From the IMG/VR virus record IMGVR_UViG_2595698399_000001, positions 1-64,000 of that record: a stretch of DNA of 64,000 bases; one strand, given 5' to 3'. Each line of letters starts with the position of its first letter. Within the stretch, counting starts at the first letter, position 1. The translations under genes and the position numbers were made by a program. Shown piece by piece: positions 2,214 through 39,006 of this stretch. A model generated the notes under the pieces. It was not told where the DNA came from. It was given only the letters and a program-made list of their open reading frames with translations, and did not search any database. The DNA comes from a virus (Duplodnaviria > Caudoviricetes).

Positions 2214-2243
2214 AAACCCCCTCAGGATTTTCCAAGGGGGCTA
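2214..2243 (-). terminator. probable intrinsic terminator after groEL
   Basis: Minus-strand AGCCCCCC/GGGGGTTT hairpin followed by an AT-rich tail. Confidence 0.5.
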
Positions 2244-2250
2244 GGTTAAT

Positions 2251-3816
2251 TTACTGGTTAAACACAACCACCGCTTCTGTGGTCAAGAATGTACCTACTA
2301 CTGAGGCAGCGTTCTCTAAAGCACATCTAGTAACCTTAACTGGGTCAATAATACCTGCCTCAATCATATCAACTAGGTCGCCACTTCTGACATCTACACC
2401 TATTCCTTTAGCAATGTGAGGCTTGTACTCAATTCCGGCATTATTAAGAATAGCCTCTATAGGTGCAATTGCCGACTCTAATACAGAGAGGTATCCAAGA
2501 GAGAATGCGTCTTCTAAGTCTTCGCTTTTATAAGCTCCAAGAACTTCTGCAGATGCATTTGCTAAAGCAACTCCTCCACCTGAAACAATTCCTTCTTCTA
2601 GGGCAGACCTTGTAGCATTAATACTATCCTCTACTCTATCTTGCTTCTCCTTCAACTCACTATCGGACTTTGCCCCTACATAAATAGTAGCTACGCCTCC
2701 TGTTATTCTAGATAACCTTTCTTGAAGGTCTTTCTTATCGAAAGTGTTTTCGGTGATTTTAATCTTCTTTTTAATCTCCTCGATAAGGTCAGATAAGTTA
2801 TCGCTATCTCCTACTAATAAGGTATCTCTGTCAGACATTACTGCCCTTTTAAGTTTGCCTAGTACTCCGGTAGATAATTTAACTCCCTCTACTTCTGAAA
2901 CAACCTTCGCTCCAGTAAGTGTTGCAATATCTCCTAAAAGATCTCTTTCAATCTTAAGAATCTGTGGAGACTTAACTACGCAAATCCTTCCTTTAAGAGG
3001 CCCGTTTGAGTTCTCTACTAAGTTACCTAATGTAACTGGGTCAATATCGTCTGTTATAATCAATAACTTGTTCTTAACAGAGGAGAATACTTGCTTTAGG
3101 AAGTTTGCAGTAACGTCTCCCTTCTCTAACTTACCCTTGTGAAGTAATACAAAAGTGTCCTCTAGCTCACAAACGTCTGTAAGGTTATTAGTCACAAATC
3201 TTGGGTGGTAATACCCTCTATCGAGTACAACACCGTTACGCATCTCTACATAACTTTCCGCTGTATCGGACACTGACGAAATAACTGTACCATTCTCACC
3301 TATCTTACTAAATGCCTTAGATACAATTTCTCCTATAACCTTATCTCCGTTTGCAGAGATAGTAGCGACACTCTTTAAGTTCTTTTTAGAAACTTTAGTA
3401 GAGTTGTTCCTCAACGTTTTAACCAAGTCTTCTACAGCCTTGTCTAGGCCTTTCTTGTACTCTGTTACCGACATATTACTGTCTTCCTTAAGCACTTTAA
3501 AACCTACATTAAATAAGTCTTGAGCTATTACTGTAGCGGTGGTTGTTCCATCACCTGCTTGTGAATTAGCTCTACTTGCAGCCTCCTTAATCATAGACGC
3601 CCCTATATTCTCGAAAGGGTCTTTAGGGGTTACAGTCCTAGCTACAGAGACTCCATCTTTAGTTACAGTATAAACTAATTGTCCATCTTTATTTGCAGGA
3701 ATGATTACATTGCGTCCAGACGCACCGAGAGTTACCTTAACGGCATCTGCAACAGTATCTACCCCTCTTTTAAGCGCCTCTCTTGAATCTAATCCGAACT
3801 TAATTGTTGTACTCAT
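2251..3816 (-). CDS. groEL: phage chaperonin GroEL (Cpn60)
   Basis: AVKVTLG, TKDGVSVA, AGDGTTTATV, EEGIVSGGG, GIIDPVKV motifs; lacks the GGM tail. Confidence 0.97.
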   Translation of the reverse strand: MSTTIKFGLDSREALKRGVDTVADAVKVTLGASGRNVIIPANKDGQLVYTVTKDGVSVARTVTPKDPFENIGASMIKEAASRANSQAGDGTTTATVIAQDLFNVGFKVLKEDSNMSVTEYKKGLDKAVEDLVKTLRNNSTKVSKKNLKSVATISANGDKVIGEIVSKAFSKIGENGTVISSVSDTAESYVEMRNGVVLDRGYYHPRFVTNNLTDVCELEDTFVLLHKGKLEKGDVTANFLKQVFSSVKNKLLIITDDIDPVTLGNLVENSNGPLKGRICVVKSPQILKIERDLLGDIATLTGAKVVSEVEGVKLSTGVLGKLKRAVMSDRDTLLVGDSDNLSDLIEEIKKKIKITENTFDKKDLQERLSRITGGVATIYVGAKSDSELKEKQDRVEDSINATRSALEEGIVSGGGVALANASAEVLGAYKSEDLEDAFSLGYLSVLESAIAPIEAILNNAGIEYKPHIAKGIGVDVRSGDLVDMIEAGIIDPVKVTRCALENAASVVGTFLTTEAVVVFNQ

Positions 3817-4627: not shown

Positions 4628-5608
4628 TTAAGATGGTATACTTACCGTTATATGTCTTCTTTCGTCTACTGACAATGCTCCTTTTCTACTTCTACCCCAA
4701 GATTGGCAATTGTTACATTGATACGCTCTATAGGCATTAACTGTAGTCTTGTATTCACTACCCCAAAATAGGTTATCGCTTCCACAAGTAGCACAAACCT
4801 CAACGTCGCTTGCAATATGTAATCCTACATTAGGATGAGGTTGAATGTACGGCCTTAGTTTAAGGTAAACCTCTTCTAAAACTCTCACATCTTGGTCACA
4901 GTATAACTGCATTGCTTTTAAAGCTTTCTCGTCACCCACAACACACCTGTTCCACAGATCTGTCTCTGTTCTAATCTTACCCTCTATTCCGAAGAAGTTT
5001 TTAGCTATGTAATCAAGTCTGTTAGATGTAATAGCAAAAGATCTTCTTGCATGCAGTAAAGTGTCAATACCTTTGTATGGAGAAGGTAAACCTAGTTCGT
5101 GTTGTAAAAACCTAGTGTTAGCTTTCTTTCTATCGAACTTATTTAAGTTGTGGGCAATTACAATATCAGCCTCATCCAACATATTCCATAATCCTATAGA
5201 AATCCTCTTATCGTCTCCTTTAAGAACCTCTTCTTTAGTTTGGCACATAGAGTAAATCTTGTCATCAAACAACCACTTACCGCTCCAACAAATCATAAAC
5301 CAATCTCTCACTATCATATTGTCTCCAATATTCACCCCCCATTTCTGGAACGATCGAACCTCCATTGCTGCCGTCTCTATATCGAAACATAGTATTTTTG
5401 CAGGTGAGGTATTCTTGATAGAAGAAACGTTTAATTTCTTAGCCCAATTACGAATAGTCCTTTCTGTTACTCCATGTTCAGATGCCAGTACTTCCTGAGC
5501 TTCTGCCCTAGTCATAGGATCCTTATCGTCGTCTGCTCTCCAATACAGCCCTTTAATAACTTTCTTCTCTACTTCCGTTAAATCTTTATATAATATCGCC
5601 ATGGACAA
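4628..5608 (-). CDS. RNase H-fold/DEDD exonuclease with N-terminal HTH and C-terminal Zn ribbon
   Basis: HGVTERTIRNW (HTH), FDIET, AHNLNKFD, YCDQDV, CATCGS...CNNC. Confidence 0.8.
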   Translation of the reverse strand: MSMAILYKDLTEVEKKVIKGLYWRADDDKDPMTRAEAQEVLASEHGVTERTIRNWAKKLNVSSIKNTSPAKILCFDIETAAMEVRSFQKWGVNIGDNMIVRDWFMICWSGKWLFDDKIYSMCQTKEEVLKGDDKRISIGLWNMLDEADIVIAHNLNKFDRKKANTRFLQHELGLPSPYKGIDTLLHARRSFAITSNRLDYIAKNFFGIEGKIRTETDLWNRCVVGDEKALKAMQLYCDQDVRVLEEVYLKLRPYIQPHPNVGLHIASDVEVCATCGSDNLFWGSEYKTTVNAYRAYQCNNCQSWGRSRKGALSVDERRHITVSIPS

Positions 5609-5780
5609 TCTGATCTTTTAATATGTTAAGCCCTTTTCTAAGGGATTCTATACCCTCTAGGGCTTCTACCCTATTTTTTTCAACCAACGAGTCTCTTAGC
5701 TCTACGCAAGATTGCCTTAGGTCAGTTGTTTGATGGTTGATAGACCGTATACGGGGGCTATCTAAACTCTCTCTAATCAT
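5586..5780 (-). CDS. hypothetical protein
   Basis: 64-aa ORF overlapping both neighbours. Confidence 0.45.
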   Translation of the reverse strand: MIRESLDSPRIRSINHQTTDLRQSCVELRDSLVEKNRVEALEGIESLRKGLNILKDQIVHGDII

Positions 5781-6247
5781 AAATTCTTAATTAAGGTTAT
5801 TGTTTCTTTACAATCTTCTAAATTTCTAGGCATAAAAAGAACTGTGTTTAGTTTGTAATCGACTAGATACTTCTTGAATAGCCTCCAAGTCCTAGGGAAG
5901 TCGGGGAAAGATCTCCCCTTTACTTCTATAAGCCAAGTTAATGGCTTTCCTACTGGCGGAGTAAAGTCAGGGGTGTAGATGGCATCTGTATATACCTTAC
6001 CTCCTCTGTTTTTGTAGACCCCGTTACCATTCATAAACTTCTCATAAGAAATATTAGGAGATGTAAATGCCGCATCTATATTAAACTTCTGTTCTTCATA
6101 AGCAAACGGAATATCGTTTTTTTGTAACAATCGATACATCATCATCTCCAACCTAGACCGGAAAGTTATGCCATCGTACACTATTTTTTTAGCGTTCGTT
6201 TGCCTATTATAGCCTCTAGCTGTTTTAGGTTTAGCTTTTTTCTTCAT
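5777..6247 (-). CDS. PD-(D/E)XK endonuclease (DUF1064/T7 endonuclease I-like)
   Basis: YDGITFRSRLE, YTPDF, IEVKG. Confidence 0.8.
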   Translation of the reverse strand: MKKKAKPKTARGYNRQTNAKKIVYDGITFRSRLEMMMYRLLQKNDIPFAYEEQKFNIDAAFTSPNISYEKFMNGNGVYKNRGGKVYTDAIYTPDFTPPVGKPLTWLIEVKGRSFPDFPRTWRLFKKYLVDYKLNTVLFMPRNLEDCKETITLIKNL

Positions 6248-6310
6248 ACTCTGTAAATATATAGCTTTTTTCCTTTGTTTACAAGGATTTAGTTAATTAT
6301 TTTTACTTTT

Positions 6311-8209
6311 TTAGTGAACATCTGCATAATTATCTCCAAATTGTACGTCAACAGAAATTTTTATGTTTAGTTTAAGTAGTTCATTAACTTTATCCATAGC
6401 TTCGTCTATAATAATCTTCACTTCTTCCCTCCTACCTTTCTCTACAGAAACTACCATTTCATCATGGTACTGCAAGAATGGGGAAAGGCCCTCTAAGGTT
6501 ATGTACTTTAACCAAACATCAAAGATGTAAGCACCTGTACCTTGATTAAGCGTTGAGAATATATCTTTTTCAGACCTAACCGAGTACCAGAAGTTACTAA
6601 CCGGGTTTAGTAACCACATTTGATCTCCTATAGTCTTAACTTTTATATCTCTTGGCAATTGTTTTATACTCCAATTTCTCTCCCAGTAGGCCTCAATAAG
6701 AACTTTTGCTTCTTGTGTGCTCATACCAATAGCTTCTCCAAGCTTCTCTGCTCCAATTCCGTAAATACACCCGTAGTTGGCCATCTTATAGCCATCTCGT
6801 ATAGGTTTAAGTAGGGTTTTAGTAGCTTTATCACCACTCTTATACAAGTCTAATTGTTCTTGGGTAATTGCGCCTGCCCTTAATGCCAAATCTAAGTGTG
6901 GATCGAAACCTTCTGACATCTGTTCTATAACATAGTCAGGGTCGTAGTTAAACATATAGTGCCTTTTGGTGTTATCCTCTAAGGAAACTATATCCGAACC
7001 ACACAGTTCTTGGCCCTCTTTAGCAATAATACATTCTCTGATTATTTGACCGTCTCTAAGGTTAGCTTCTACAGCCTCGGCCTTAGTCATCCCGCCTTTT
7101 ATGGCTTCGTGTATAGCTCCTGTAACCCCCGGTAGATTCACAATAGGCTTAGAGTGTCTAAGTCTTAATGTGTTGGTTAGTCCGGCAGCACTGGCTATGG
7201 TCATTCCATTCTCGTCAGAGCATTCTTGTAAAGATCTAAGTAAAGCAAGTCTGTGATTTATCACAGTAAGGCCATCCAAGTAAAGTATAGCAGGCTCTTT
7301 ATCACTTAGCTCTAATATACTCTCGCATAACTCCCTGTCTTTATTTCTAATCTGAGGTACTGGCCCGTTGGCCCCGTCATTAAATATCTTAGGCTCCCAA
7401 CCTATACTAAACAGCCAATCCTTAAGCTGAGTAGTGGAGCTAGGATTTGCAGGAGCTCTAACCTCCTCTGTTGTTGGGGGAAGGCCATTATCTTTTAAGT
7501 ACTGAAACCACTTAATAGCATTTGCAGAGGGTTGCCTATTCTTTTTAAACATTACCTTAGGCTTAGTTTTAATTATAGCCCCCTCAGGCATAGCTCTTAT
7601 AAGCATTTCCTCCTTTTCTAAAAGCATAGGCTCTAGGATATCTATATTCTCCTTAACCTTATCTAAGTCCACTCTACACATCTCAGATTGTTGAGTGACT
7701 AAGCAATCCATCTTAAACATCAAGTATTTTATAAACTCGAAGGCCGCTTCGGAAGAACCGTACAACTCCATTAACTTAGAGATCAACTCTTCCCAAAGTT
7801 TTATGTTTATCTTTACATCCTCTTGGCATCTGTTCTCATAATCCTCATAAGTAAGTCCTTCCCAATCCTCTATTTTAGGTTTAGGTATACCGTACTCTAC
7901 TCCAAACTGTGCTAACCCGAAGCTAGCTTTTCTCGTTGGAAATAAGTACCAAGCCAATGCCAAGGTGTCTATTACGAAGGCTTTTATTTTGAACCCTAAC
8001 AATCTCTCTAACTCTACCGAATCGAACAATTTAAAGAAGTGGCCGACTATGAAATTATCCTCGTCTTCCATTATACTTTTTATCTTATCCGGATCTTTGG
8101 TAGAAATTACCTGCCAGTCTCCATCTTCGTCTTGGTAACCTACAGATACTACGTGTAATTTAGTGGATTTAAGTCCGTCTGTTTCTATATCAACTACGTA
8201 TGTTGCCAT
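6311..8209 (-). CDS. polA: DNA polymerase family A with 3'-5' exonuclease domain
   Basis: VDIETDG, motif A GSDIVSLE, motif B R...KMANYGCIYG, motif C QYHDE. Confidence 0.95.
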   Translation of the reverse strand: MATYVVDIETDGLKSTKLHVVSVGYQDEDGDWQVISTKDPDKIKSIMEDEDNFIVGHFFKLFDSVELERLLGFKIKAFVIDTLALAWYLFPTRKASFGLAQFGVEYGIPKPKIEDWEGLTYEDYENRCQEDVKINIKLWEELISKLMELYGSSEAAFEFIKYLMFKMDCLVTQQSEMCRVDLDKVKENIDILEPMLLEKEEMLIRAMPEGAIIKTKPKVMFKKNRQPSANAIKWFQYLKDNGLPPTTEEVRAPANPSSTTQLKDWLFSIGWEPKIFNDGANGPVPQIRNKDRELCESILELSDKEPAILYLDGLTVINHRLALLRSLQECSDENGMTIASAAGLTNTLRLRHSKPIVNLPGVTGAIHEAIKGGMTKAEAVEANLRDGQIIRECIIAKEGQELCGSDIVSLEDNTKRHYMFNYDPDYVIEQMSEGFDPHLDLALRAGAITQEQLDLYKSGDKATKTLLKPIRDGYKMANYGCIYGIGAEKLGEAIGMSTQEAKVLIEAYWERNWSIKQLPRDIKVKTIGDQMWLLNPVSNFWYSVRSEKDIFSTLNQGTGAYIFDVWLKYITLEGLSPFLQYHDEMVVSVEKGRREEVKIIIDEAMDKVNELLKLNIKISVDVQFGDNYADVH

Positions 8210-14926: not shown

Positions 14927-15658
14927 TTATCCCCTTCCTTTAGAATCCGGATAGAGGTCTTTACTTCTATCTGATAACCAAAACTCTCTGGTGTTCATAT
15001 CCATTATACAAAGTTGTCCGTTCCAACCTGCTCCGGTGTCCATGTTACATAAATTACCCACCCAAAAAGGTTCTCCTTTGTCATGTGAAGTGTGGCCAAT
15101 GTATACCTCCTTGAATTGCTTAAGTGGTTTGAAGCTATCTAACTCCCTTCTATTTCTAAGAGATAGTGCAGATCTGTATAATTCTCTATCCCAATGGCAT
15201 TCTCTGGATATAGAGCCTGCGTCAACTCTCAGGCTTGCTTGCCTTTCAAAATCTCCGTGGTGAGTATAATCCCAACCTGCGTGTACAAAGAGCCTATTTT
15301 CATCGTCTATATACCAATCTACTTGGTCTTCCCAAAACTTTACGTGCCTTTCGTCTTGTATTAATTTCTTATCTACGTAAGAGCGTACTGTAGCCTCTCC
15401 TCCTTGTTTAAGCCAATTGTTTGGGGCATCTTTATACTTAATCCAATCGTGGCACCACACATCGTGATTACCTCTGATAGCCACTAAATTCTTTATACTT
15501 AGTAGTATTTCTACACACTCGGGAGTATCATCCCAACCGTCTGCAACATCTCCTAGCTGTATTAACTTATCTACATCTTTATCAAACCCCGACCTTTCCA
15601 AACATTGCTTTAAGGCTCTTGCAGATCCGTGGATGTCTCCCATTACAAATACTCTCAT
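14927..15658 (-). CDS. calcineurin-like metallophosphoesterase (PPP-type)
   Basis: GDIHG, LGDVADG, RGNHD, VHAG, GHT, DTGAG. Confidence 0.92.
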   Translation of the reverse strand: MRVFVMGDIHGSARALKQCLERSGFDKDVDKLIQLGDVADGWDDTPECVEILLSIKNLVAIRGNHDVWCHDWIKYKDAPNNWLKQGGEATVRSYVDKKLIQDERHVKFWEDQVDWYIDDENRLFVHAGWDYTHHGDFERQASLRVDAGSISRECHWDRELYRSALSLRNRRELDSFKPLKQFKEVYIGHTSHDKGEPFWVGNLCNMDTGAGWNGQLCIMDMNTREFWLSDRSKDLYPDSKGRG

Positions 15659-19246: not shown

Positions 19247-20650
19247 TTATTTCTTTTTCCAAGGTTTAAATCTGTCGTAATCACCTGCCATTATGCTTCC
19301 ATAAGGCATTATTTTATCTAATACGTCTCCAAGTCCAAAACTCTCCATTTGGTCTTGTACTGTATCTGCGTTCTTATAAGCGGATGGCAACTCAGAGATA
19401 TCTATCTCTCCTGAGAAGAATCTTATATCTAACCCTGCAGTCTCGTCTTTGAATATCTGAGGGTTGCTCTTGGCTGACATACTTCTCTTATGTGCTGCTC
19501 TACTTACATTTCTACCTGCACCGTGTGGAGCAAATCCTAAGTTTGTTCTTGTAGTTTTTCCTTTTACTATTAGTATAGGCTCTGCCATGTTTAAAGGTAT
19601 TAGTCTTAGACCCTCTGTAGAATCCGGTACAAACTTATCATCTAAAGGGGTTGCGCCTTTGGCATGGTAGAACTTATCTCCGTCCTTGAATACAAAATTG
19701 TGCTCATTCCAAAAAGATCTTATTGGAGTAGTCTTCAACTTGTTTGCTACCCTATTGTGTATAGAAGAGTGGTTTAATTTAGTCCATTCTCTTAGTATTT
19801 GCAAAGCCTCCCAATACAACTCTCCTTCTTTTTCTTCAAAAGGTATCCAAGCATTCATCGGGTCTGTTTTAGGGCTTAATTGCTTTCTAAATCTCTCTGC
19901 GGTATGCATCCCTTTTTTATAGACACTAGAACCAAACCCTCTAGACCCATGGTGCGTTACCATCATCGTTCTTCCGGTAGCTTCTGACACCCCTACGAAT
20001 AAGAAGTGGTTACCGTCTCCCTGTGTTCCCATGTGCATCCTAGCCTTCTCTATGTAATCTTTAGTGAAGTAGTTCTCTTCTATTCTACTTGTAAGTAGAG
20101 ACTCTCCATCTAATATAGATGACCAACCTCCTAATCCTCTCCTACCCCCTGGGCCAAATTGAGTTGTCTCAAATGCAATATCCATAACATCTTTTGGTTT
20201 AACTCCTTCGGCAAACTCCGTGGCGTACACAGAGCAGCAAATATCTGCTGAATGAAAACCGGGATGTATTGCGTTTTTAGTTACTACTACAGAGCCTACT
20301 GGTATCTGACCTAGCTTCCCTGTGGGGCATGCATCTGGCATTATAGTTCCGTCTACAATAGTAGGAGTCTTCATAAGACTGTCCATGGACATCTTTACTA
20401 GATCTACATTGTCTTGCTCCTTTTCGTTGGTTGGTAAAATGTTGATAGTGTAACTCACAGGATTTTTATGTAGTCCTATAGTTGGGGGAGGTAAGTACTT
20501 ATTACACGAAAATACTATTTCGTCGTCCGTTAACCTCCTACCTAATATTTTTAGAAATTGCTTCTCTTGGGCGTTAAGCTCGTCAATAGCTTCTCCAAAC
20601 CATTTACTTGGCTTATACCCTAATTCAATCAGAGTTTTTCCTGTTACCAT
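19247..20650 (-). CDS. rtcB: RtcB family RNA ligase (3'-phosphate/2',3'-cyclic phosphate to 5'-OH)
   Basis: MPDAC, SADICC, GTQGDGNHF, HHGSRG, EHN, HAKGAT, HGAGR, ELPSAYK. Confidence 0.93.
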   Translation of the reverse strand: MVTGKTLIELGYKPSKWFGEAIDELNAQEKQFLKILGRRLTDDEIVFSCNKYLPPPTIGLHKNPVSYTINILPTNEKEQDNVDLVKMSMDSLMKTPTIVDGTIMPDACPTGKLGQIPVGSVVVTKNAIHPGFHSADICCSVYATEFAEGVKPKDVMDIAFETTQFGPGGRRGLGGWSSILDGESLLTSRIEENYFTKDYIEKARMHMGTQGDGNHFLFVGVSEATGRTMMVTHHGSRGFGSSVYKKGMHTAERFRKQLSPKTDPMNAWIPFEEKEGELYWEALQILREWTKLNHSSIHNRVANKLKTTPIRSFWNEHNFVFKDGDKFYHAKGATPLDDKFVPDSTEGLRLIPLNMAEPILIVKGKTTRTNLGFAPHGAGRNVSRAAHKRSMSAKSNPQIFKDETAGLDIRFFSGEIDISELPSAYKNADTVQDQMESFGLGDVLDKIMPYGSIMAGDYDRFKPWKKK

Positions 20651-26782: not shown

Positions 26783-26805
26783 CTTTATTGTTTTGTGATT
26801 ATTAG

Positions 26806-27164
26806 TGGAGGCGGAGGGAATCGAACCCTCGTCCAGAGCACTTAATCGTTAATGTTTTATACAGCTTTTGCGTAGTATCGTTACACACGGCATTTCTTTA
26901 GACTCTTTATGCTAGAGGGGCCAACCATAGTTATGATTGAAGCTCCACCAAACTGTTTTGAGAAAACAGATAAAACGGTCAGCTTATACCCCTACTGCTA
27001 CTTCAAGGTTAAGGATAGCGTTTACCGCTTCCATATTAGCTTCGATCTGTGCGTTTACCGCATTCGTGTTGTTTCCGTTTAAAGAATTTCACCTTAGTTT
27101 GTGCAGTTATCTCTCTGCGCTGAACATTAACGACTGTTATACCCTGTCAAAACCAGTCGCCCCC
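26806..27164 (-). ncRNA. ssrA: tmRNA (SsrA); predicted tag GNNTNAVNAQIEANMEAVNAILNLEVAVGV* (26984-27076)
   Basis: 5' GGGGGCGACTGGTTTTGACAG, 3' GGACGAGGGTTCGATTCCCTCCGCCTCCA; G3.U70 alanine identity pair; TAAAC|GGA resume context. Confidence 0.92.
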
Positions 27165-28604: not shown

Positions 28605-28676
28605 TACTCTCTATAGGATTCGAACCTATGTTTTTCGGATGAAAACCGAATGTCCTTACCGCTAGACGAAAAGAGC
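28605..28676 (-). tRNA. tRNA-Glu(UUC), copy A
   Basis: GCTCTTT/AGAGAGT, TTCGG-TTTTCAT-CCGAA, ATAGG-TTCGAAT-CCTAT. Confidence 0.9.
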
Positions 28677-30574: not shown

Positions 30575-30646
30575 TACTCTCTATAGGATTCGAACCTATG
30601 TTTTTCGGATGAAAACCGAATGTCCTTACCGCTAGACGAAAAGAGC
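30575..30646 (-). tRNA. tRNA-Glu(UUC), copy B (identical to copy A)
   Basis: Base-for-base identical to 28605-28676. Confidence 0.9.
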
Positions 30647-34856: not shown

Positions 34857-35061
34857 TAGTGGTAATTTTATAAAATATGGCACGTACATGGGAATCATTC
34901 GGGGAGTTTTGGTCTGAACTATCAAAAGATCAGAGGACGTACTTAAAAGAGTACATAAATAAGAAAACACGACAGGCCGTCGAACAATATAAAGAAAGTC
35001 TCGAATAACAGCTCGAATACTTTTACTATATTTGCACCTAACACTATAAACATTATAAACT

Positions 35062-35208
35062 ATGATTACATTTTTAGTAGGAGTATTGGCCGGAGCGGCA
35101 GGCTTCGCATTAATCTTGAAGAACAACCCTAAATTACAAGCATATTTCAATAGTGCTGCAGACGAGTTGGAGCGAAAGATTGAAGAAAAAACCGGAAAAG
35201 ACATCTAA
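35062..35208 (+). CDS. small membrane-anchored protein (48 aa, MITFLVGVLAGAAGFALILKNNPK..., YtxH-like)
   Basis: Read manually; upstream TATATTTG box at ~35027. Confidence 0.55.
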   Translation: MITFLVGVLAGAAGFALILKNNPKLQAYFNSAADELERKIEEKTGKDI

Positions 35209-35227
35209 AACAAAAATTATTTACAAG

Positions 35228-35263
35228 TAAGTTTTTTTATATCAAAAAAAAGTTGTATATTTG
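35228..35263 (+). promoter_or_regulatory. tRNA array 1 promoter (repeat copy 1)
   Basis: TAAGTTTTTTTATATCAAAAAAAAGTTGTATATTTG; Bacteroidota -7 box TAnnTTTG; repeated at 36705 and 37947. Confidence 0.8.
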
Positions 35264-35282
35264 TATCAAAGCAATAAGATCG

Positions 35283-35360
35283 ATGAAAACAATTATGAAC
35301 ATAGCGACAGATATTAGAACCAAGGGAGTGAAACTCTTGGGGAGGAGCCGTGTACTATAA
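35283..35360 (+). CDS. attenuator leader peptide 1 (MKTIMNIATDIRTKGVKLLGRSRVL)
   Basis: 16 of the first 17 codons are M/K/T/I/A/D/R/G/V, the amino acids of tRNA array 1. Confidence 0.8.
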   Translation: MKTIMNIATDIRTKGVKLLGRSRVL

Positions 35361-35388
35361 TTTCTTTAGATATAAGATGTTTATTACA

Positions 35389-35415
35389 GCCCTCCCCTAA
35401 AAAGGAGGGTTTTTT
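35389..35415 (+). terminator. attenuator terminator 1
   Basis: GCCCTCC/GGAGGGT stem plus U-run, 3 nt before tRNA-Ala; leader GGGGAGG can pair with CCTCCCC. Confidence 0.85.
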
Positions 35416-35418
35416 ATT

Positions 35419-35493
35419 GGGGCTGCATGAACCAAGGCAAGGCGACTTTGATTTGCAATCAGAGTGAGATGGGTTCGATACCCATGAGTTCCA
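35419..35493 (+). tRNA. tRNA-Ala(UGC)
   Basis: Loop TTTGCAA, GGGGCTG start with G3.U70, ATGGG-TTCGATA-CCCAT. Confidence 0.8.
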
Positions 35494-35521
35494 CAATAAG
35501 ATCCCTTACTGACACCAAATT

Positions 35522-35594
35522 GCCCTTGTAGCAAACAGGTTGTAGGCAACCGTCTTTTAAACGGTGGGGCTAGGTTCGATTCCTAGCAGGGGCA
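35522..35594 (+). tRNA. tRNA-Lys(UUU)
   Basis: ACCGT-CTTTTAA-ACGGT; GCCCTTG/CAGGGGC. Confidence 0.9.
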
Positions 35595-35643
35595 CATAAG
35601 TAAATTAGCTTATATAATGGATTATAAGCGAATAAGGTAATAT

Positions 35644-35716
35644 TGGAGTATAGCTCAGCGGTTAGAGCACTCCCCTGATACGGGAGATGTCGTAGGTTCG
35701 AAACCTTCTACTCCAA
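35644..35716 (+). tRNA. tRNA-Ile(GAU)
   Basis: CTCCC-CTGATAC-GGGAG; TGGAGTA/TACTCCA. Confidence 0.9.
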
Positions 35717-35804
35717 CGAGGCGGAAGACTACCGAAAGAAGGAAAAAGGAAAAAAGTTGGACTAAGAGATTGTTTTTACCTCAACTCTATAAAAAGAGGA
35801 ATTT

Positions 35805-35877
35805 GCGTAAGAGGCCATAGTGGAATGGCGCCTGCCTTCCAAGTAGGAGATAGCGAGTTCGAACCTCGTCTTACGCT
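35805..35877 (+). tRNA. tRNA-Gly(UCC)
   Basis: CCTGC-CTTCCAA-GTAGG; GCGTAAG/CTTACGC. Confidence 0.9.
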
Positions 35878-35887
35878 CTTTTAAAAT

Positions 35888-35956
35888 TGTGGGTGGTCGT
35901 GGTGACCAGAGGGCCTCATAAGTCCTTATAGATGGGTTCGACTCCCATACCCGCCA
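35888..35956 (+). tRNA. tRNA-Met (or Ile2) (CAU), atypical short D-arm
   Basis: AGGGC-CTCATAA-GTCCT; 1:72 mismatch; ATGGG-TTCGACT-CCCAT. Confidence 0.7.
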
Positions 35957-36031
35957 CAAAAGTCGTTTCTACACTCTTCGGGATAAAGGGTGTTCGTACG
36001 ACACTCGGCAGTTAATCGACATCTGCCAACT

Positions 36032-36108
36032 GGTCTAATAAGCGTGTTTGGTAACACGAATTGCACTGTCACTGCTCTAAAACGAGGGTTCGAATCCCTC
36101 TTAGACCG
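36032..36108 (+). tRNA. tRNA-Asp(GUC)
   Basis: GCA-CTGTCAC-TGC; GGTCTAA/TTAGACC, G73; GAGGG-TTCGAAT-CCCTC. Confidence 0.8.
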
Positions 36109-36118
36109 CTTTAATTAT

Positions 36119-36192
36119 GCACTAATGACTGAATAGGAAATGGTACTTCATTTGTAACGAAGATAATTCGGGTTCGACTCCTGATTAGTGCT
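36119..36192 (+). tRNA. tRNA-Thr(UGU)
   Basis: Loop TTTGTAA; GCACTAA/TTAGTGC. Confidence 0.85.
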
Positions 36193-36401
36193 CAACATAC
36201 TTAATCCGCCTATCGAGAAGTTTTGAAGCGCATTAGATTAAGTGTTTTCTGAAAAAGGGGCTTAGCGAATACTAGATATCGTTAACAAAGGCCCCTTTTT
36301 ATTTATCAGGATAAAAGTATTGTAATGGAGTTTTGAGTTATGGAAATAAGCTTCTCCACGTTAAAAACAAAAAAGTAGGTGTAGTAATATGCTTACCATA
36401 T

Positions 36402-36475
36402 ACCAGATTAGCTCAGCGGTTTAGAGCAGCTCTTTTACAAGGAGAAGGTCGATAGTTCGAATCTATCATTTGGTA
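36402..36475 (+). tRNA. tRNA-Val(UAC)
   Basis: Loop TTTACAA; ACCAGAT/ATTTGGT; canonical D-arm. Confidence 0.88.
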
Positions 36476-36536
36476 CGACAGTACCTACCACACTTCTAGG
36501 AGAACGTCTCAAAGTGTCCAAGGGTAGGTCTTTTTT

Positions 36537-36607
36537 ACCTCTATAGTTTAAAGGAAGAATACGGCGCTTCTAACGCTATGGTCGGGGTTCGAATCCCTGT
36601 AGAGGTT
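36537..36607 (+). tRNA. tRNA-Arg(UCU)
   Basis: GGCG-CTTCTAA-CGCT; ACCTCTA/TAGAGGT. Confidence 0.88.
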
Positions 36608-36612
36608 CTTAT

Positions 36613-36683
36613 TGGAGTAAGCCTAGGTAGGTTAGCACGTCTTATATGCGTGTGGAGATGGGTTCGATTCCCTCTATTCCAAC
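36613..36683 (+). tRNA. tRNA-Ile(UAU), atypical D-arm
   Basis: CACGT-CTTATAT-GCGTG; TGGAGTA/TATTCCA; GGTTCGATTCC. Confidence 0.65.
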
Positions 36684-36704
36684 TATTTATAAAATAAAAA
36701 GATA

Positions 36705-36740
36705 TAAGTTTTTTTATATCAAAAAAAGTTGTATATTTAC
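36705..36740 (+). promoter_or_regulatory. tRNA array 2 promoter (repeat copy 2)
   Basis: TAAGTTTTTTTATATCAAAAAAAGTTGTATATTTAC directly before the leader ATG. Confidence 0.8.
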
Positions 36741-36743
36741 AAT

Positions 36744-36833
36744 ATGAAAACAAACATGACATACAATAATTTCTCTTGGTATTCGAATTGTAGCTTTAGT
36801 AGCTATAATGTCGAGAGGTTGTACTTGTCTTAA
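36744..36833 (+). CDS. attenuator leader peptide 2 (MKTNMTYNNFSWYSNCSFSSYNVERLYLS)
   Basis: Codons 7-22 are exclusively Y/N/F/S/W/C, the amino acids of tRNA array 2. Confidence 0.85.
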   Translation: MKTNMTYNNFSWYSNCSFSSYNVERLYLS

Positions 36834-36882
36834 AAATATATTCATTTCTTTTATTAATTTTTGATTATTAATTTTGATTTTT

Positions 36883-36917
36883 ACCCTCTTGGTCTTTCAT
36901 AGCTAGGAGGGTTTTTT
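36883..36917 (+). terminator. attenuator terminator 2
   Basis: ACCCTCTTGGT/GCTAGGAGGGT stem plus U-run before tRNA-Tyr; leader GTCGAGAGG can pair with CCTCTTGGT. Confidence 0.85.
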
Positions 36918-36930
36918 GTTTTTTATAACT

Positions 36931-37012
36931 TGCAACGTAAAGCTAGTGGTTCTAGCAGGCTGTCTGTAAAACAGTTCTTGAGAGGGGAGTGGTTCGATTC
37001 CGCACGGTGCAA
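36931..37012 (+). tRNA. tRNA-Tyr(GUA)
   Basis: GCTGT-CTGTAAA-ACAGT; long variable arm. Confidence 0.85.
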
Positions 37013-37019
37013 CAATAAT

Positions 37020-37109
37020 GGAAGAGTAAGCCAAGTAGGTCTACTGGTCGCTGTCTTGAAAACAGTTGGGGTTTAAAAGCCCGTGTGGGTTCGAGCCCCA
37101 CTTCTTCCG
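37020..37109 (+). tRNA. tRNA-Ser(UGA)
   Basis: GCTGT-CTTGAAA-ACAGT; long variable arm; G73. Confidence 0.9.
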
Positions 37110-37114
37110 CATTT

Positions 37115-37199
37115 AGAGAGGTGTCTGAGTGGCTTAAGGTACTACTTTGCTAAAGTAGTGGGGTTAACGCCTCCGAGGGTTCGAATCCCTTCTTCTCTA
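37115..37199 (+). tRNA. tRNA-Ser(GCU)
   Basis: CTACT-TTGCTAA-AGTAG; long variable arm. Confidence 0.9.
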
Positions 37200-37208
37200 C
37201 AAACACAC

Positions 37209-37280
37209 GGCTAGGTAGCTCAGAGGAAGAGCAGGCGCCTGTTAAGCGTCAGGTCGAGATATCGTAATTCTCCCTAGCCT
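37209..37280 (+). tRNA. tRNA-Asn(GUU), non-canonical T-loop
   Basis: GGCGC-CTGTTAA-GCGTC; GGCTAGG/CCTAGCC; T-loop ATCGTAA. Confidence 0.85.
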
Positions 37281-37287
37281 CTTTAAT

Positions 37288-37359
37288 ATGTCTCAGCATA
37301 AGGTATGCAGTCGGTCTCCAAAACCGTACATGGACAAGGTTCGATTCCTTGGGGGCGTG
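37288..37359 (+). tRNA. tRNA-Trp(CCA)
   Basis: CGGT-CTCCAAA-ACCG; CAAGG-TTCGATT-CCTTG; G73. Confidence 0.85.
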
Positions 37360-37439
37360 CAATAAAACAACAGAGCATCCTATAATGTAAAGGAGCCGCC
37401 ATAAAATCCGAGAGAAGGTCTTGGCTGTTGTTTTTTAAT

Positions 37440-37512
37440 GCGTTAGAAGCTAACTTGGTAGAAGCACTGGCTTGAAATCCCAGAGGAGTAGGTTCGATTC
37501 CTACCTATCGCA
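37440..37512 (+). tRNA. tRNA-Phe(GAA)
   Basis: Loop TTGAAAT in a CTGG/CCAG stem; GTAGG-TTCGATT-CCTAC. Confidence 0.85.
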
Positions 37513-37517
37513 CTTAT

Positions 37518-37589
37518 ATCGGAGATCCTGACGGAGAAGGGGCCTGTCTGCAAAACTGCGCTATACCGGTTCAATTCCGGTCTCCGATT
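37518..37589 (+). tRNA. tRNA-Cys(GCA)
   Basis: Loop CTGCAAA; ATCGGAG/CTCCGAT; U73. Confidence 0.8.
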
Positions 37590-37640
37590 CTTATGTTTGT
37601 ATTTTTCGTACCTTTACTACTTAACGTTAAACAAACAACA

Positions 37641-37934
37641 ATGAGAAGAACTACAAGAAAAACTGTGCCAACTAATAAAACTGCGCCTAAGAAAAACGTA
37701 ACAATCAAATCTGATAAGAGTAGTGTTGCAAGTACCAAGGCTAAAAAATACACTGTTAAGACAAGTGGCAAGCTTAAGAAAGAAGAAGAAGCTAGAGGAA
37801 CTAGGGGTCGTAATGACGCCAATAGATCTGCAGCCTTTAAGAAAGATGTAGAGAAGGCCGGAGGTATGAGTGCATATACTAAGAAATTAACTGATGCAAA
37901 GAAGAGGGTCAAGAAGAATCCAACAAGAATCTAA
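37641..37934 (+). CDS. highly basic Lys/Arg/Thr-rich protein (start probably MRRTTRK)
   Basis: Part of ORF 37593..37934; ATG after A-rich AAACAAACAACA and a TACCTTTA box. Confidence 0.6.
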   Translation: MRRTTRKTVPTNKTAPKKNVTIKSDKSSVASTKAKKYTVKTSGKLKKEEEARGTRGRNDANRSAAFKKDVEKAGGMSAYTKKLTDAKKRVKKNPTRI

Positions 37935-37946
37935 TATAAAACAGTA

Positions 37947-37983
37947 TAAGTTTTTTTATATCAAAAAAAAGTTGTATATTTAC
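37947..37983 (+). promoter_or_regulatory. tRNA array 3 promoter (repeat copy 3)
   Basis: TAAGTTTTTTTATATCAAAAAAAAGTTGTATATTTAC directly before the leader ATG. Confidence 0.8.
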
Positions 37984-37986
37984 AAT

Positions 37987-38076
37987 ATGAACGTAACGCT
38001 ATTACATCAAGAGCCCTTAGAACAACTTCGATTACCATCGAGGGTGCCTTATTATGGGATTGATGAACTATCATAG
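37987..38076 (+). CDS. attenuator leader peptide 3 (MNVTLLHQEPLEQLRLPSRVPYYGIDELS)
   Basis: Codons 5-17 are exclusively L/H/Q/E/P/R, the amino acids of tRNA array 3. Confidence 0.85.
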   Translation: MNVTLLHQEPLEQLRLPSRVPYYGIDELS

Positions 38077-38100
38077 TTTACAACGCACAATATCCTATTA

Positions 38101-38136
38101 AGAGCCCCTTTGGTATAAACCATTGGGGCTTTTTTT
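38101..38136 (+). terminator. attenuator terminator 3
   Basis: AGAGCCCC-TTTGGTATAAACCATT-GGGGCTTT plus U-run 4 nt before tRNA-Pro; leader 38038-38062 is complementary to 38088-38113. Confidence 0.85.
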
Positions 38137-38140
38137 ATTT

Positions 38141-38212
38141 CGAGTAGTGACAAAATTGGCACGTGCCGACCTTGGACGTCGGAGAATGCAGGTTCGATCC
38201 CTGCCTACTCGA
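38141..38212 (+). tRNA. tRNA-Pro(UGG)
   Basis: CCGAC-CTTGGAC-GTCGG; CGAGTAG/CTACTCG. Confidence 0.9.
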
Positions 38213-38221
38213 CTTTGATTT

Positions 38222-38296
38222 GCTATCGTCTTCTAAATGGAATAGGAATCCACCCTTTCAAGGTGTGCAATGCGAGTTCAAGTCTCGTCGATAGTA
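38222..38296 (+). tRNA. tRNA-Glu(UUC), distinct sequence from copies A/B
   Basis: CACC-CTTTCAA-GGTG; GCTATCG/CGATAGT. Confidence 0.88.
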
Positions 38297-38342
38297 CGAA
38301 GGTTGTTTGCTAGTATCTCCCAACAAAGTAGAAACTAGACAT

Positions 38343-38414
38343 TGGAGTATGATGTAACGGTTAGCATGACTGGTTTTGAGCCAGTTCGTCGGGGTTCGAA
38401 TCCCTGTACTCCAT
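38343..38414 (+). tRNA. tRNA-Gln(UUG)
   Basis: ACTGG-TTTTGAG-CCAGT; TGGAGTA/TACTCCA. Confidence 0.9.
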
Positions 38415-38425
38415 CTTATAAGAGT

Positions 38426-38499
38426 CCTCCGTTGCGCCAAATTGGAAAGGCGGTCAAGCTGTGAACTTGATTACATGGGTTCGATTCCCATACGGTTGT
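38426..38499 (+). tRNA. tRNA-His(GUG), mismatched acceptor stem
   Basis: TCAAG-CTGTGAA-CTTGA; ATGGG-TTCGATT-CCCAT. Confidence 0.75.
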
Positions 38500-38538
38500 C
38501 CAACACGGGGTAGTGTCATAATGTCATACCCCTTTTAT

Positions 38539-38621
38539 GCCGGAGTGAGTAAAAAAGAGAATGGCAGATCATTGGGTCTTAGAAACCCAGACTTTTGGGG
38601 GTTCGAATCCCTCCTCCGGTA
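38539..38621 (+). tRNA. tRNA-Leu(UAG), atypical (short variable arm, long D region)
   Basis: TGGGT-CTTAGAA-ACCCA; GCCGGAG/CTCCGGT; A73. Confidence 0.75.
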
Positions 38622-38630
38622 CTTATTAAT

Positions 38631-38713
38631 GCATCCATGGTGGAAAGGGCTATACACTACAGGCTTAAAACCTGTCGCCGAAAGGATTGGGGGTTCGAAT
38701 CCCTCTGGATGCA
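38631..38713 (+). tRNA. tRNA-Leu(UAA)
   Basis: ACAGG-CTTAAAA-CCTGT; long variable arm; GCATCCA/TGGATGC. Confidence 0.9.
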
Positions 38714-38720
38714 CTTTCAC

Positions 38721-38792
38721 ACTTCTATAGCTTAACGGAAAAGCGTTCCGCTACGAACGGATAGATTGGGGGTTCGAATCCCTCTAGAAGTT
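38721..38792 (+). tRNA. tRNA-Arg(ACG)
   Basis: TCCG-CTACGAA-CGGA; ACTTCTA/TAGAAGT. Confidence 0.9.
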
Positions 38793-38800
38793 CTTAAACA

Positions 38801-38832
38801 AAAAAAGCCATCTAATTAAAGGTGGCTTTCTT
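38801..38832. terminator. terminator closing tRNA array 3 (probably bidirectional)
   Basis: AAAAAAGCCATCT-AATTAA-AGGTGGCTTTCTT. Confidence 0.7.
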
Positions 38833-38853
38833 ATTTTCAACTGGTGGTTGGTG

Positions 38854-39006
38854 CTAGGCTAATTTGGATTTGCCCCTAATTTTAAAAGATAGGGCATCCT
38901 TCACCTTGCTATTTTTTCGTTTATAAACTCGAGCAGTCGAATCTTCTTTCTTAGAATCCAACTTACTATTCTTCTTACTTTCTATTTTATGGTCTTTATA
39001 TCTCAT
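38854..39006 (-). CDS. small basic protein (50 aa, MRYKDHKIESKKNSK...IRGKSKLA)
   Basis: Read manually; converges on the 38801-38832 terminator. Confidence 0.4.
   Translation of the reverse strand: MRYKDHKIESKKNSKLDSKKEDSTARVYKRKNSKVKDALSFKIRGKSKLA

Follow-up and report, generated by a model that had tools for sequence, protein, structure and literature searches.

Background

Leader-peptide attenuators are familiar from trpL, hisL, pheL and leuL, and some of them are multivalent: the thr leader carries regulatory codons for threonine and isoleucine, and the ilvGMEDA leader for isoleucine, leucine and valine. The same kind of control acts in Escherichia coli on phenylalanyl-tRNA synthetase (pheST), which is attenuated through the pheM leader. 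Genes for transfer RNAs (tRNAs), in bacteria and phages alike, are by textbook account governed by promoters (growth-rate and stringent control) and by processing. Here we describe a 64,000-nucleotide stretch of DNA from a marine tailed phage (the window; positions 1 to 64,000 of IMG/VR record IMGVR_UViG_2595698399_000001), in which three arrays of tRNA genes are each preceded by a short open reading frame (ORF) whose codons match the tRNAs of that array. Most probably these ORFs belong to three ribosome-mediated transcription attenuators of the leader-peptide, trp/ilv type, one before each array. On our best reading, what is new is that a known kind of attenuation is applied to tRNA genes.

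The phage cassettes resemble thr/ilv-type attenuators in their ORF with regulatory codons, their intrinsic terminator, a predicted exclusive antiterminator that depends on the ribosome, and the presence of several amino acids per leader. They differ from the enterobacterial systems in that they govern tRNA genes and not biosynthetic enzymes, so that the effector aminoacyl-tRNA would derive from the product itself. A single phage leader would sense up to 10 amino acids and 13 tRNAs, through codons that are mostly single or double instead of forming long homopolymeric runs; moreover, the mRNAs appear leaderless or nearly so, the systems are phage-borne, and the host belongs to the Bacteroidota. 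The pheST/pheM system shares leader-peptide attenuation of a decoding-apparatus component with the cognate charged tRNA as the signal, but it controls a synthetase, responds to one amino acid and is cellular. T-box riboswitches likewise use antitermination to read the state of a specific tRNA by codon-anticodon recognition, whereas they bind one uncharged tRNA without a ribosome and possess conserved Stem I and T-box elements, which are absent from the phage leaders.

Two further systems are close in function. In Anabaena sp. PCC 7120, a 26-gene tRNA operon is silent until translational stress (PMC8421152; PMC10272220). It resembles the phage arrays in being a supplementary set of tRNA genes kept off until translation is impaired, with rtcB functionally associated (PMC8421152); it differs in being cellular and under promoter control, through direct repeats bound by the repressor TrcR (PMC8421152; PMC10272220). 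The strings 'attenuat', 'leader' and 'terminator' do not occur in the available part of the text of PMC8421152. Mycobacteria reportedly use leaderless polycysteine short ORFs as cysteine-responsive attenuators (bioRxiv 10.1101/834739), which are similar in that the codon content of a leaderless ORF makes downstream expression responsive to decoding, and different in that they read one amino acid and precede protein-coding operons. A search of the full-text literature returned no paper in which tRNA genes, whether phage or cellular, are controlled by attenuation or by a leader peptide, an older account in a subscription journal being possible; this agrees with an initial reading of the window made from its letters (the sequence-only reading), which knew of no attenuation control of phage tRNA genes. 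A cultured Cellulophaga podovirus has been the subject of a transcriptome study (PMC5335546), in whose accessible text the only tRNA genes named are those of the host, 'terminator' is absent, and 'attenuat' appears solely in the title of a reference.

Three cassettes of leader ORF, terminator and tRNA array

The same cassette occurs three times at 35,228-38,830 on the plus strand, each time as a 35-nucleotide (nt) repeat, a short ORF, a hairpin with a T-run and a tRNA array (Table 1). The sequence-only reading had proposed this threefold design, and each of its parts is found: the shared repeat of about 35 bp in three copies (one a base shorter) and nowhere else in the window, ORFs of 25, 29 and 29 codons between promoter and array (25-29 had been claimed), a predicted intrinsic terminator before each array, and arrays of 10, 7 and 7 tRNAs. 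A 30-nt version of the repeat has no further match in the 64-kb window at up to three mismatches. The repeat ends in a TATATTTG/A box, which we take to be the Bacteroidota -7 promoter box (TAnnTTTG); its function as a promoter is putative. As the ATG of unit 1 lies only 20 nt after this box, the 5' untranslated region there would be short; in units 2 and 3 the ATG follows within 4-5 nt, and their mRNAs would therefore be leaderless or nearly so. A GC-rich hairpin with a run of six or seven T residues lies ~30-55 nt after the stop codon of each ORF, and the first tRNA gene begins a few bases further on (for tRNA-Ala, 3 nt past the T-run of terminator 1). Terminator 3 was missed by the consensus scan because of an internal loop in its hairpin.

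An ORF cognate to the array, an intrinsic terminator and a pairing segment at the 3' end of the ORF make up the trp/his/ilv attenuator layout that had been suggested for the locus. At the level of sequence and of in silico folding, the cassettes combine a short ORF, matching codons, a terminator and two mutually exclusive pairings, namely that of a segment within the ORF (region 2) with the 5' arm of the terminator (region 3), and that of region 3 with the 3' arm (region 4).

Leader codons match the adjacent array

Every codon after the ATG was counted, and the match was scored at the level of codon boxes. Leader 1 has 18, 2 and 4 of its 24 codons in the sets of arrays 1, 2 and 3, respectively; the corresponding values are 6, 19 and 3 of 28 for leader 2, and 7, 5 and 16 of 28 for leader 3. 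A codon of the cognate box is present in the own leader for all 24 tRNAs, including both Ile, both Ser and both Leu isoacceptors; the sequence-only reading had claimed that each leader covers every amino acid of its array. The distinction extends to arginine, read as AGA in leader 1 for Arg(tct) vs CGA in leader 3 for Arg(acg). Codons outside the own array sit among the opening two to five codons and in the 3' portion, where the RNA structure forms. Each codon box has exactly one of the 24 tRNAs (two in the case of Ile), and at the level of boxes all 61 sense codons are covered. A lone U34 tRNA reads most of the four-codon boxes, an arrangement known from minimal decoding systems; the set is minimal but complete.

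The sensing run of leader 2 (16 codons) is the longest for the array-2 set among the 127,996 codon positions in the six frames of the window (next 12), and that of leader 3 (13 codons) is the longest for the array-3 set over the same positions (next 10). Neither is attained by any of 200,000 random ORFs of the same length simulated with the codon usage of the window.

A frame control was made on 17 leader-array units from this and other phages. Codons for the own array account for 211 of 417 in frame 0, against 78 of 417 in frame +1 and 87 of 417 in frame +2. Since the signal is lost in both other frames, it resides in codons and not in base composition. This loss also speaks against a translation-independent, T-box-like sensor, in which uncharged tRNAs would pair directly with the codon string in the leader RNA. 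Such pairing is conceivable, as the leader codons are complementary to the anticodons of the downstream tRNAs; however, all 17 units have one uninterrupted frame, an ATG at a fixed distance from the promoter and a stop codon just before the terminator. Neither a T-box nor any other leader family is among the 39 Rfam matches at E <= 10 in 35,200-38,900, and the non-tRNA matches that fall in the leaders are all spurious. A sensor of the T-box kind is thus highly improbable.

Leaders co-vary with array content across phages

The window is part of a virus record of 72,534 bases. Among named phages it is closest to Cellulophaga phages Calle_1 to Calle_3 (Pervagoviridae), with 95% identity over 61% of the query; Maribacter phage Panino is more distant. 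Two promoter-plus-ATG patterns were scanned over IMG/VR and one over species genomes. With the first pattern, 7 of 23 stretches carry such a leader (L094, L121, L123, L127, L134, L137 with two units, and L141), the other 16 holding ordinary genes or no tRNA nearby; the second matches at least 117 IMG/VR stretches. A blind screen of 257 loci (35 arrays of at least two same-strand tRNAs) added L194, L216 and L244, L225 sharing the leader of L194. Two of 16 stretches from the species genomes hold leader-array units, both on one 78.9-kb phage-like contig binned with a Lacinutrix metagenome-assembled genome.

Several candidates were set aside. The 16-nt promoter pattern proved too unspecific, with at least 117 stretches and, among the matches listed, L094 as the only leader-array unit. 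L088 has a tRNA array, with the pattern match ~6 kb away; L026 has two matches beside three tRNAs and lacks an ORF-terminator unit; L138 has a short ORF after the promoter and no tRNA nearby. L255 and L226 were left out because their 25-tRNA arrays cover all 20 amino acids, so that any ORF would match.

Calle_1 is 92-100% identical to the window over unit 1 and most of array 1, and 63-76% identical over the final 100 bases of the comparison. Since the two phages have the same leader 1, Calle_1 gives no independent evidence for unit 1. Where relatives share the amino-acid partition of the window, the composition of the leader is kept and its peptide sequence is not: before the array Pro-Glu-Gln-His-Leu-Leu-Arg, the window has LLHQEPLEQLRLP, Panino QRLHQELEQP and a further phage (G002) RLHLEQLEQP. 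The Tyr-Ser-Ser-Asn-Trp-Phe-Cys array of Panino, located ~40 kb from its other arrays and on the opposite strand, retains its own promoter, an FSWFNYSNCS leader and a terminator.

Two phages divide the amino acids differently: G001, represented by a contig of 106.8 kb, and G004, whose 155-kb genome is complete and has terminal repeats. In both, array a contains Pro, Thr, Cys, Phe, Trp, Gln, His and Arg(acg), array b Lys, Val, Arg(tct), Asn, Met, Gly, Glu, Asp, Ile, Ile and Ala, and array c Leu, Leu, Ser, Ser and Tyr. The G001 leaders, in array order, are HRTHTWFTTCPQCPF, INMIVDRINGAEK and YSSLSLLYS. Those of G004 are looser versions of the same three sets (the second is MIVRNIlGADEK, the third LYtYYSLSLLSL), and the first lacks an Arg codon. 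Relative to the window, Thr, Asn, Glu, Cys/Phe/Trp and Leu have changed array, and the leader codons have changed with them. When seven leaders are compared with six arrays, all six leaders of the window and G004 fit their own array best, by both count and run length, and the third leader of Panino fits the matching window array. Arrays of only Pro, Gln, His, Arg(acg) and Leu(tag) follow the leaders LRHPQQ and HRLPQP, whose sensing runs have no Glu codon and give Leu as CTN, not TTR. Wherever an Arg tRNA was called in the array, the type of Arg codon in the sensing run tracks it. As far as sequence comparison can decide, this co-variation is decisive and constitutes the strongest result, especially in G001 and G004; leader-array matching in related phages had been named as a check of the sequence-only reading, and the leaders are present there, with compositions that shift with differently composed arrays.

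Alternative pairings of the leader RNA

All structural results are in silico and refer to the 17 units, taken from this and other phages. Each has an ORF of 15-32 codons followed by a predicted terminator, a hairpin with a T5-8 run 25-58 nt past the stop codon. In every unit, the best upstream partner of region 3 lies between the sensing run and the region of the stop codon, 2-41 nt before the stop or, in the shortest leader, just past it, which bears out the claim that a segment near the 3' end of the ORF is complementary to the 5' strand of the terminator. This complementarity reaches p <= 0.055 against 200 dinucleotide shuffles in 13 of the units. Region 2 departs from the common sequence together with unusual terminator arms (CCAGAGCC with GGCTCTGG, GCCATCC with GGGTGG, and CCCTGGAGC with GCTCTAGGG), and in 9 of 17 units, including most of those with arms unlike CCCTCC, the own leader is the best partner of region 3 among all 17 leaders.

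Stalling was modeled by masking the RNA that a ribosome would cover with codon 9 in its A site (codon 7 for the short G1c leader), the transcript being cut before the 3' arm. Under these conditions the minimum free energy (MFE) structure contains the 2:3 pairing in all 17 units. Folding of the alternative structures had been proposed as a check, and unit 1 also switches at full length: the free RNA forms a 1:2 hairpin and the terminator, a stall in the middle of the sensing run gives the 2:3 pairing, and a ribosome at the stop codon gives the terminator; masking nt 1-40 is sufficient to shift its MFE to 2:3. Without a ribosome, the full-length MFE structures of all three window leaders retain the terminator, and region 2 of units 1 and 2 is paired with a part of the ORF that lies upstream of it.

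The absence of any switch, with the ORFs as small protein genes or chance frames and the hairpins as constitutive partial terminators or processing signals, is very hard to credit. The translation of the ORFs is putative, and some leaders are rich in Cys and Gly at their 3' end and could be imagined as peptides. However, the runs are too long for chance and frame-specific, the leaders follow array content across phages while their peptide sequence is unconserved, and region 2 co-varies with the terminator arm. Chance, small-protein genes and the T-box-like mechanism were accordingly rejected on run length, frame specificity, co-variation and the Rfam scan.

Proposed mechanism and points that weigh against it

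According to the attenuation model, host RNA polymerase would initiate at the repeated promoter, and a ribosome would load on the leaderless or nearly leaderless ORF and trail the polymerase. Prompt decoding would bring the ribosome to region 2, which it would cover; the terminator could then form and transcription would stop a few bases before the first tRNA gene, leaving a leader RNA of ~130-175 nt. Slow decoding of any array-cognate codon would stall the ribosome upstream, so that region 2 could pair with the 5' arm of the terminator and the whole array would be transcribed. Because the tRNAs of the array would relieve the stall, the cassette would act as negative feedback on the decoding speed of its own codons, and the tRNAs are probably made only when those codons are decoded slowly.

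The simpler reading is such a negative feedback on decoding speed, whatever the cause of the tRNA shortage; candidates for the natural cause are host shut-off, codon-usage mismatch, starvation and host tRNA-cleaving defenses. A response mainly to amino-acid starvation, with uncharged tRNA as the signal and tRNA output tied to host nutrition, is unlikely. Leader-peptide attenuation senses aminoacyl-tRNA at the A site, and the architecture is indistinguishable from that of amino-acid operon attenuators, both of which would suit a nutritional signal. Induction would nevertheless be futile, since extra tRNA does not relieve a shortage of amino acids, and the coverage by isoacceptor box (AGR vs CGN, CTN vs TTR, ATA vs ATY) better fits a sensor of tRNA species.

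Several observations weigh against the attenuator interpretation. Leader translation, its coupling to transcription, termination at the hairpins and the response to aminoacyl-tRNA are what we infer from the sequence, and translation of leaderless mRNA in this host is an assumption of the model. The chance test on leader codons that had been proposed is clearly positive for leaders 2 and 3 and weaker for leader 1, whose 11-codon run is broken by one Asn codon (P = 6.5e-3); the array-1 codon set makes up 53% of coding codons, and longer runs of it exist elsewhere in the window. The pairing of region 2 is not significant in four of the 17 units (W1, p = 0.22; PanB, 0.20; G2B, 0.095; L127, 0.225). 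In units 2 and 3, the terminator (-14.6 and -15.9 kcal/mol) remains the optimum over the 2:3 pairing (-11.1 and -13.1 kcal/mol) even when the ribosome is stalled, and the switch there must therefore be kinetic; the choice in the trp attenuator is likewise kinetic.

The match of leader to array is also imperfect in some relatives. At L127 (reverse complement, 6073-6500), a Ser/Phe/Trp/Asn/Tyr/Cys leader precedes only tRNA-Phe and a tRNA remnant. For PanB, G2B and L244b, the match is not significant with the arrays as called (P = 0.41, 0.42 and 0.23); these arrays are interrupted by protein genes, cut by the end of the contig or locus, or contain odd tRNAs miscalled by ARAGORN.

Within the window, 6 of the 24 tRNAs are sub-threshold, non-canonical calls. 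Default ARAGORN finds 18 of the 24 in the region and Rfam at its gathering score 17; with the -ps90 option, ARAGORN also calls Ile(tat), Tyr(gta), Trp(cca) and Cys(gca). The call of tRNA-Ala(tgc) at 35,419-35,495 rests on its alignment to the counterparts in three relatives (anticodon loop, T-arm, G3.U70). The tRNA-Leu(tag) at ~38,539-38,622, in which 10 nt are inserted in the D region, is a weak call (20.8 bits in Rfam, E 0.65). Furthermore, arrays 1 and 2 contain structured spacers (36,194-36,401 between Thr and Val, and 37,361-37,439 between Trp and Phe; fold z = -3.0 for both), and terminator-like hairpins with a T-run lie at ~36,253-36,300 and ~37,364-37,436. Were these hairpins efficient, the distal tRNAs would escape control by the leaders; partial termination within the array or RNA processing could be their role. 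Codons for the three tRNAs that follow the internal hairpin of array 1 are nevertheless present in leader 1.

RNA-library contigs

Nine RNA libraries were found for the locus, five of which contain 78-88% of the sampled words; contigs of four were compared. These are Logan contigs, which show no starts, ends, strand or level, and DNA carry-over is possible. They cover leaders and arrays, and some span terminators 1 and 2 (34,990-36,270 in X5; 36,710-37,971 in X1). Among the contigs listed, none spans terminator 3, where separate ones end at 38,060 and 38,065 and begin at 38,128. Contig coverage and depth are uninformative as to termination or regulation.

Functional implications and neighboring translation genes

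A ribosome-read, product-sensing attenuator before tRNA genes would, if true, mean that the decoding apparatus is regulated by a logic of a new kind. Such control would account for a complete 24-tRNA set in a phage of 72.5 kb without constitutive cost, and would bear on why phages retain tRNAs (e.g., codon supply, host shut-off, or escape from tRNA-cleaving defenses). A further implication would be that Flavobacteriia couple transcription to translation functionally and initiate on leaderless mRNAs, both of which have, to our knowledge, barely been studied in Bacteroidota. The prediction is directly testable, since the nearest named relatives are cultured Cellulophaga phages and RNA libraries hold the locus. 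The leaders could serve as compact, codon-specific sensors of decoding speed.

The window also encodes an RtcB ligase (a 467-aa ORF), a transfer-messenger RNA (tmRNA) and two tRNA-Glu(ttc) genes outside the three arrays (Table 1). These genes are circumstantially consistent with a translation-rescue theme and do not identify a trigger. They lead to a rather doubtful alternative, in which the same hardware would serve chiefly in counter-defense, sensing the loss of tRNAs to host anticodon nucleases or toxins and working together with RtcB and tmRNA. Besides these two genes, the completeness of the tRNA set, with all 61 sense codons covered, would suit this role, as would the induction of the Anabaena tRNA array along with rtcB under translational stress, described in the accessible part of its report (PMC8421152). 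On the other side, the sequence reads alike for nuclease damage, host shut-off, codon-usage mismatch and starvation, and the phage tRNAs would themselves need to resist the nuclease.

A wider proposal can be put forward only tentatively. Leader-array cassettes might be a general, mobile invention of Bacteroidota phages, closed-loop homeostats of decoding speed that give a private tRNA set on demand, triggered chiefly by host tRNA-targeting defenses or shut-off, with RtcB and tmRNA as parts of a translation-rescue regulon. If so, tRNA genes would be feedback-regulated by their own product through the ribosome, and the leaders would be natural reporters of decoding speed at single-codon resolution.

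Coordinates and further observations

Table 1. Positions of cassette elements and of other features of the window and its relatives (window coordinates unless another locus is named; rc, reverse complement; aa, amino acids).
Feature	Position	Strand	Basis or remarks
Promoter repeat, copy 1	35228..35262	+	direct-repeat family D3; ends in TATATTTG box; ATG 20 nt on
Promoter repeat, copy 2	36705..36739	+	direct repeat; one A shorter; ATG 4 nt past -7 box
Promoter repeat, copy 3	37947..37981	+	direct repeat; ATG ~5 nt past -7 box
Leader ORF 1, 25 codons	35283..35360	+	MKTIMNIATDIRTKGVKLLGRSRVL; sensing codons 35286-35333 (K T I M n I A T D I R T K G V K)
Leader ORF 2, 29 codons	36744..36833	+	MKTNMTYNNFSWYSNCSFSSYNVERLYLS; sensing run 36762-36809, 16 codons Y/N/F/S/W/C
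Leader ORF 3, 29 codons	37987..38076	+	MNVTLLHQEPLEQLRLPSRVPYYGIDELS; sensing run 37999-38037, 13 codons L/H/Q/E/P/R
Region 2, unit 1 (antiterminator strand)	35339..35347	+	GGGGAGGAG; inside ORF, 12-20 nt before stop codon
Region 2, unit 2	36811-36821	+	inside leader ORF 2
Region 2, unit 3	38034-38047	+	inside leader ORF 3
Terminator 1	35388..35417 (hairpin 35388-35411)	+	consensus scan; CCCTCC / GGAGGG + T6
Terminator 2	36883..36917 (hairpin 36883-36912)	+	consensus scan; 11-bp stem + T6
Terminator 3	38104..38136 (hairpin 38104-38129)	+	RNAfold -15.9 kcal/mol; GCCCC..GGGGC + T7
Terminator-like hairpin closing array 3	38804..38829	+	consensus scan
Array 1, 10 tRNAs	35419..36683	+	Ala(tgc), Lys(ttt), Ile(gat), Gly(tcc), Met(cat), Asp(gtc), Thr(tgt), Val(tac), Arg(tct), Ile(tat)
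Array 2, 7 tRNAs	36931..37590	+	Tyr(gta), Ser(tga), Ser(gct), Asn(gtt), Trp(cca), Phe(gaa), Cys(gca)
Array 3, 7 tRNAs	38141..38793	+	Pro(tgg), Glu(ttc), Gln(ttg), His(gtg), Leu(tag, weak call), Leu(taa), Arg(acg)
Small hydrophobic protein, upstream of Ala/Lys-type leader	35062-35208	+	window
Small hydrophobic protein, same position	L002 5269-5418		
Small hydrophobic protein, same position	L143 (rc) ~2236-2370		
Small hydrophobic protein, same position	L244 ~5589-5700		
Lysine-rich ORF, 113 aa	37593-37934	+	between array 2 and cassette 3
RtcB, tRNA-splicing/repair ligase, 467-aa ORF	19247-20650	-	Pfam E = 1.9e-34
tmRNA	26803-27164	-	Rfam RF00023, 87.6 bits
tRNA-Glu(ttc)	28605-28676	-	score identical to the next
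tRNA-Glu(ttc)	30575-30646	-	score identical to the preceding
Metallophosphatase	14927-15658	-	

In several phages, the Ala/Lys-type leader is immediately preceded by the gene of a small hydrophobic protein of ~45-50 amino acids, with a conserved C-terminal part. Only 0-15 nt separate its stop codon from the leader ORF in the relatives, without a promoter between them; the window has the repeat inserted there. The Calle_1 counterpart of the lysine-rich 113-aa ORF is annotated as a structural protein, and a TAtgTTTG box directly after tRNA-Cys suggests that a separate promoter may serve this ORF.

In leader 3, the first pass (37,999-38,016) reads L L H Q E P, and R L L H Q E P in Calle_1 (L001). 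It mirrors the gene order Pro-Glu-Gln-His-Leu-Leu-Arg, as is partly the case in Panino and L194. A mirrored order as a general rule fails in units 1 and 2, and the case of leader 3 may be chance or a relic.

The L127 cassette then borders genes on the other strand and looks decayed or rearranged. Between the arrays of G001, a lone tRNA with anticodon CTA (L142 4636-4708; amber-reading, called 'Pyl' by ARAGORN) has its own promoter-like box and could serve amber read-through or recoding in that phage. The ARAGORN tag of the window tmRNA ends in AVGV, not in the usual ALAA-type sequence.

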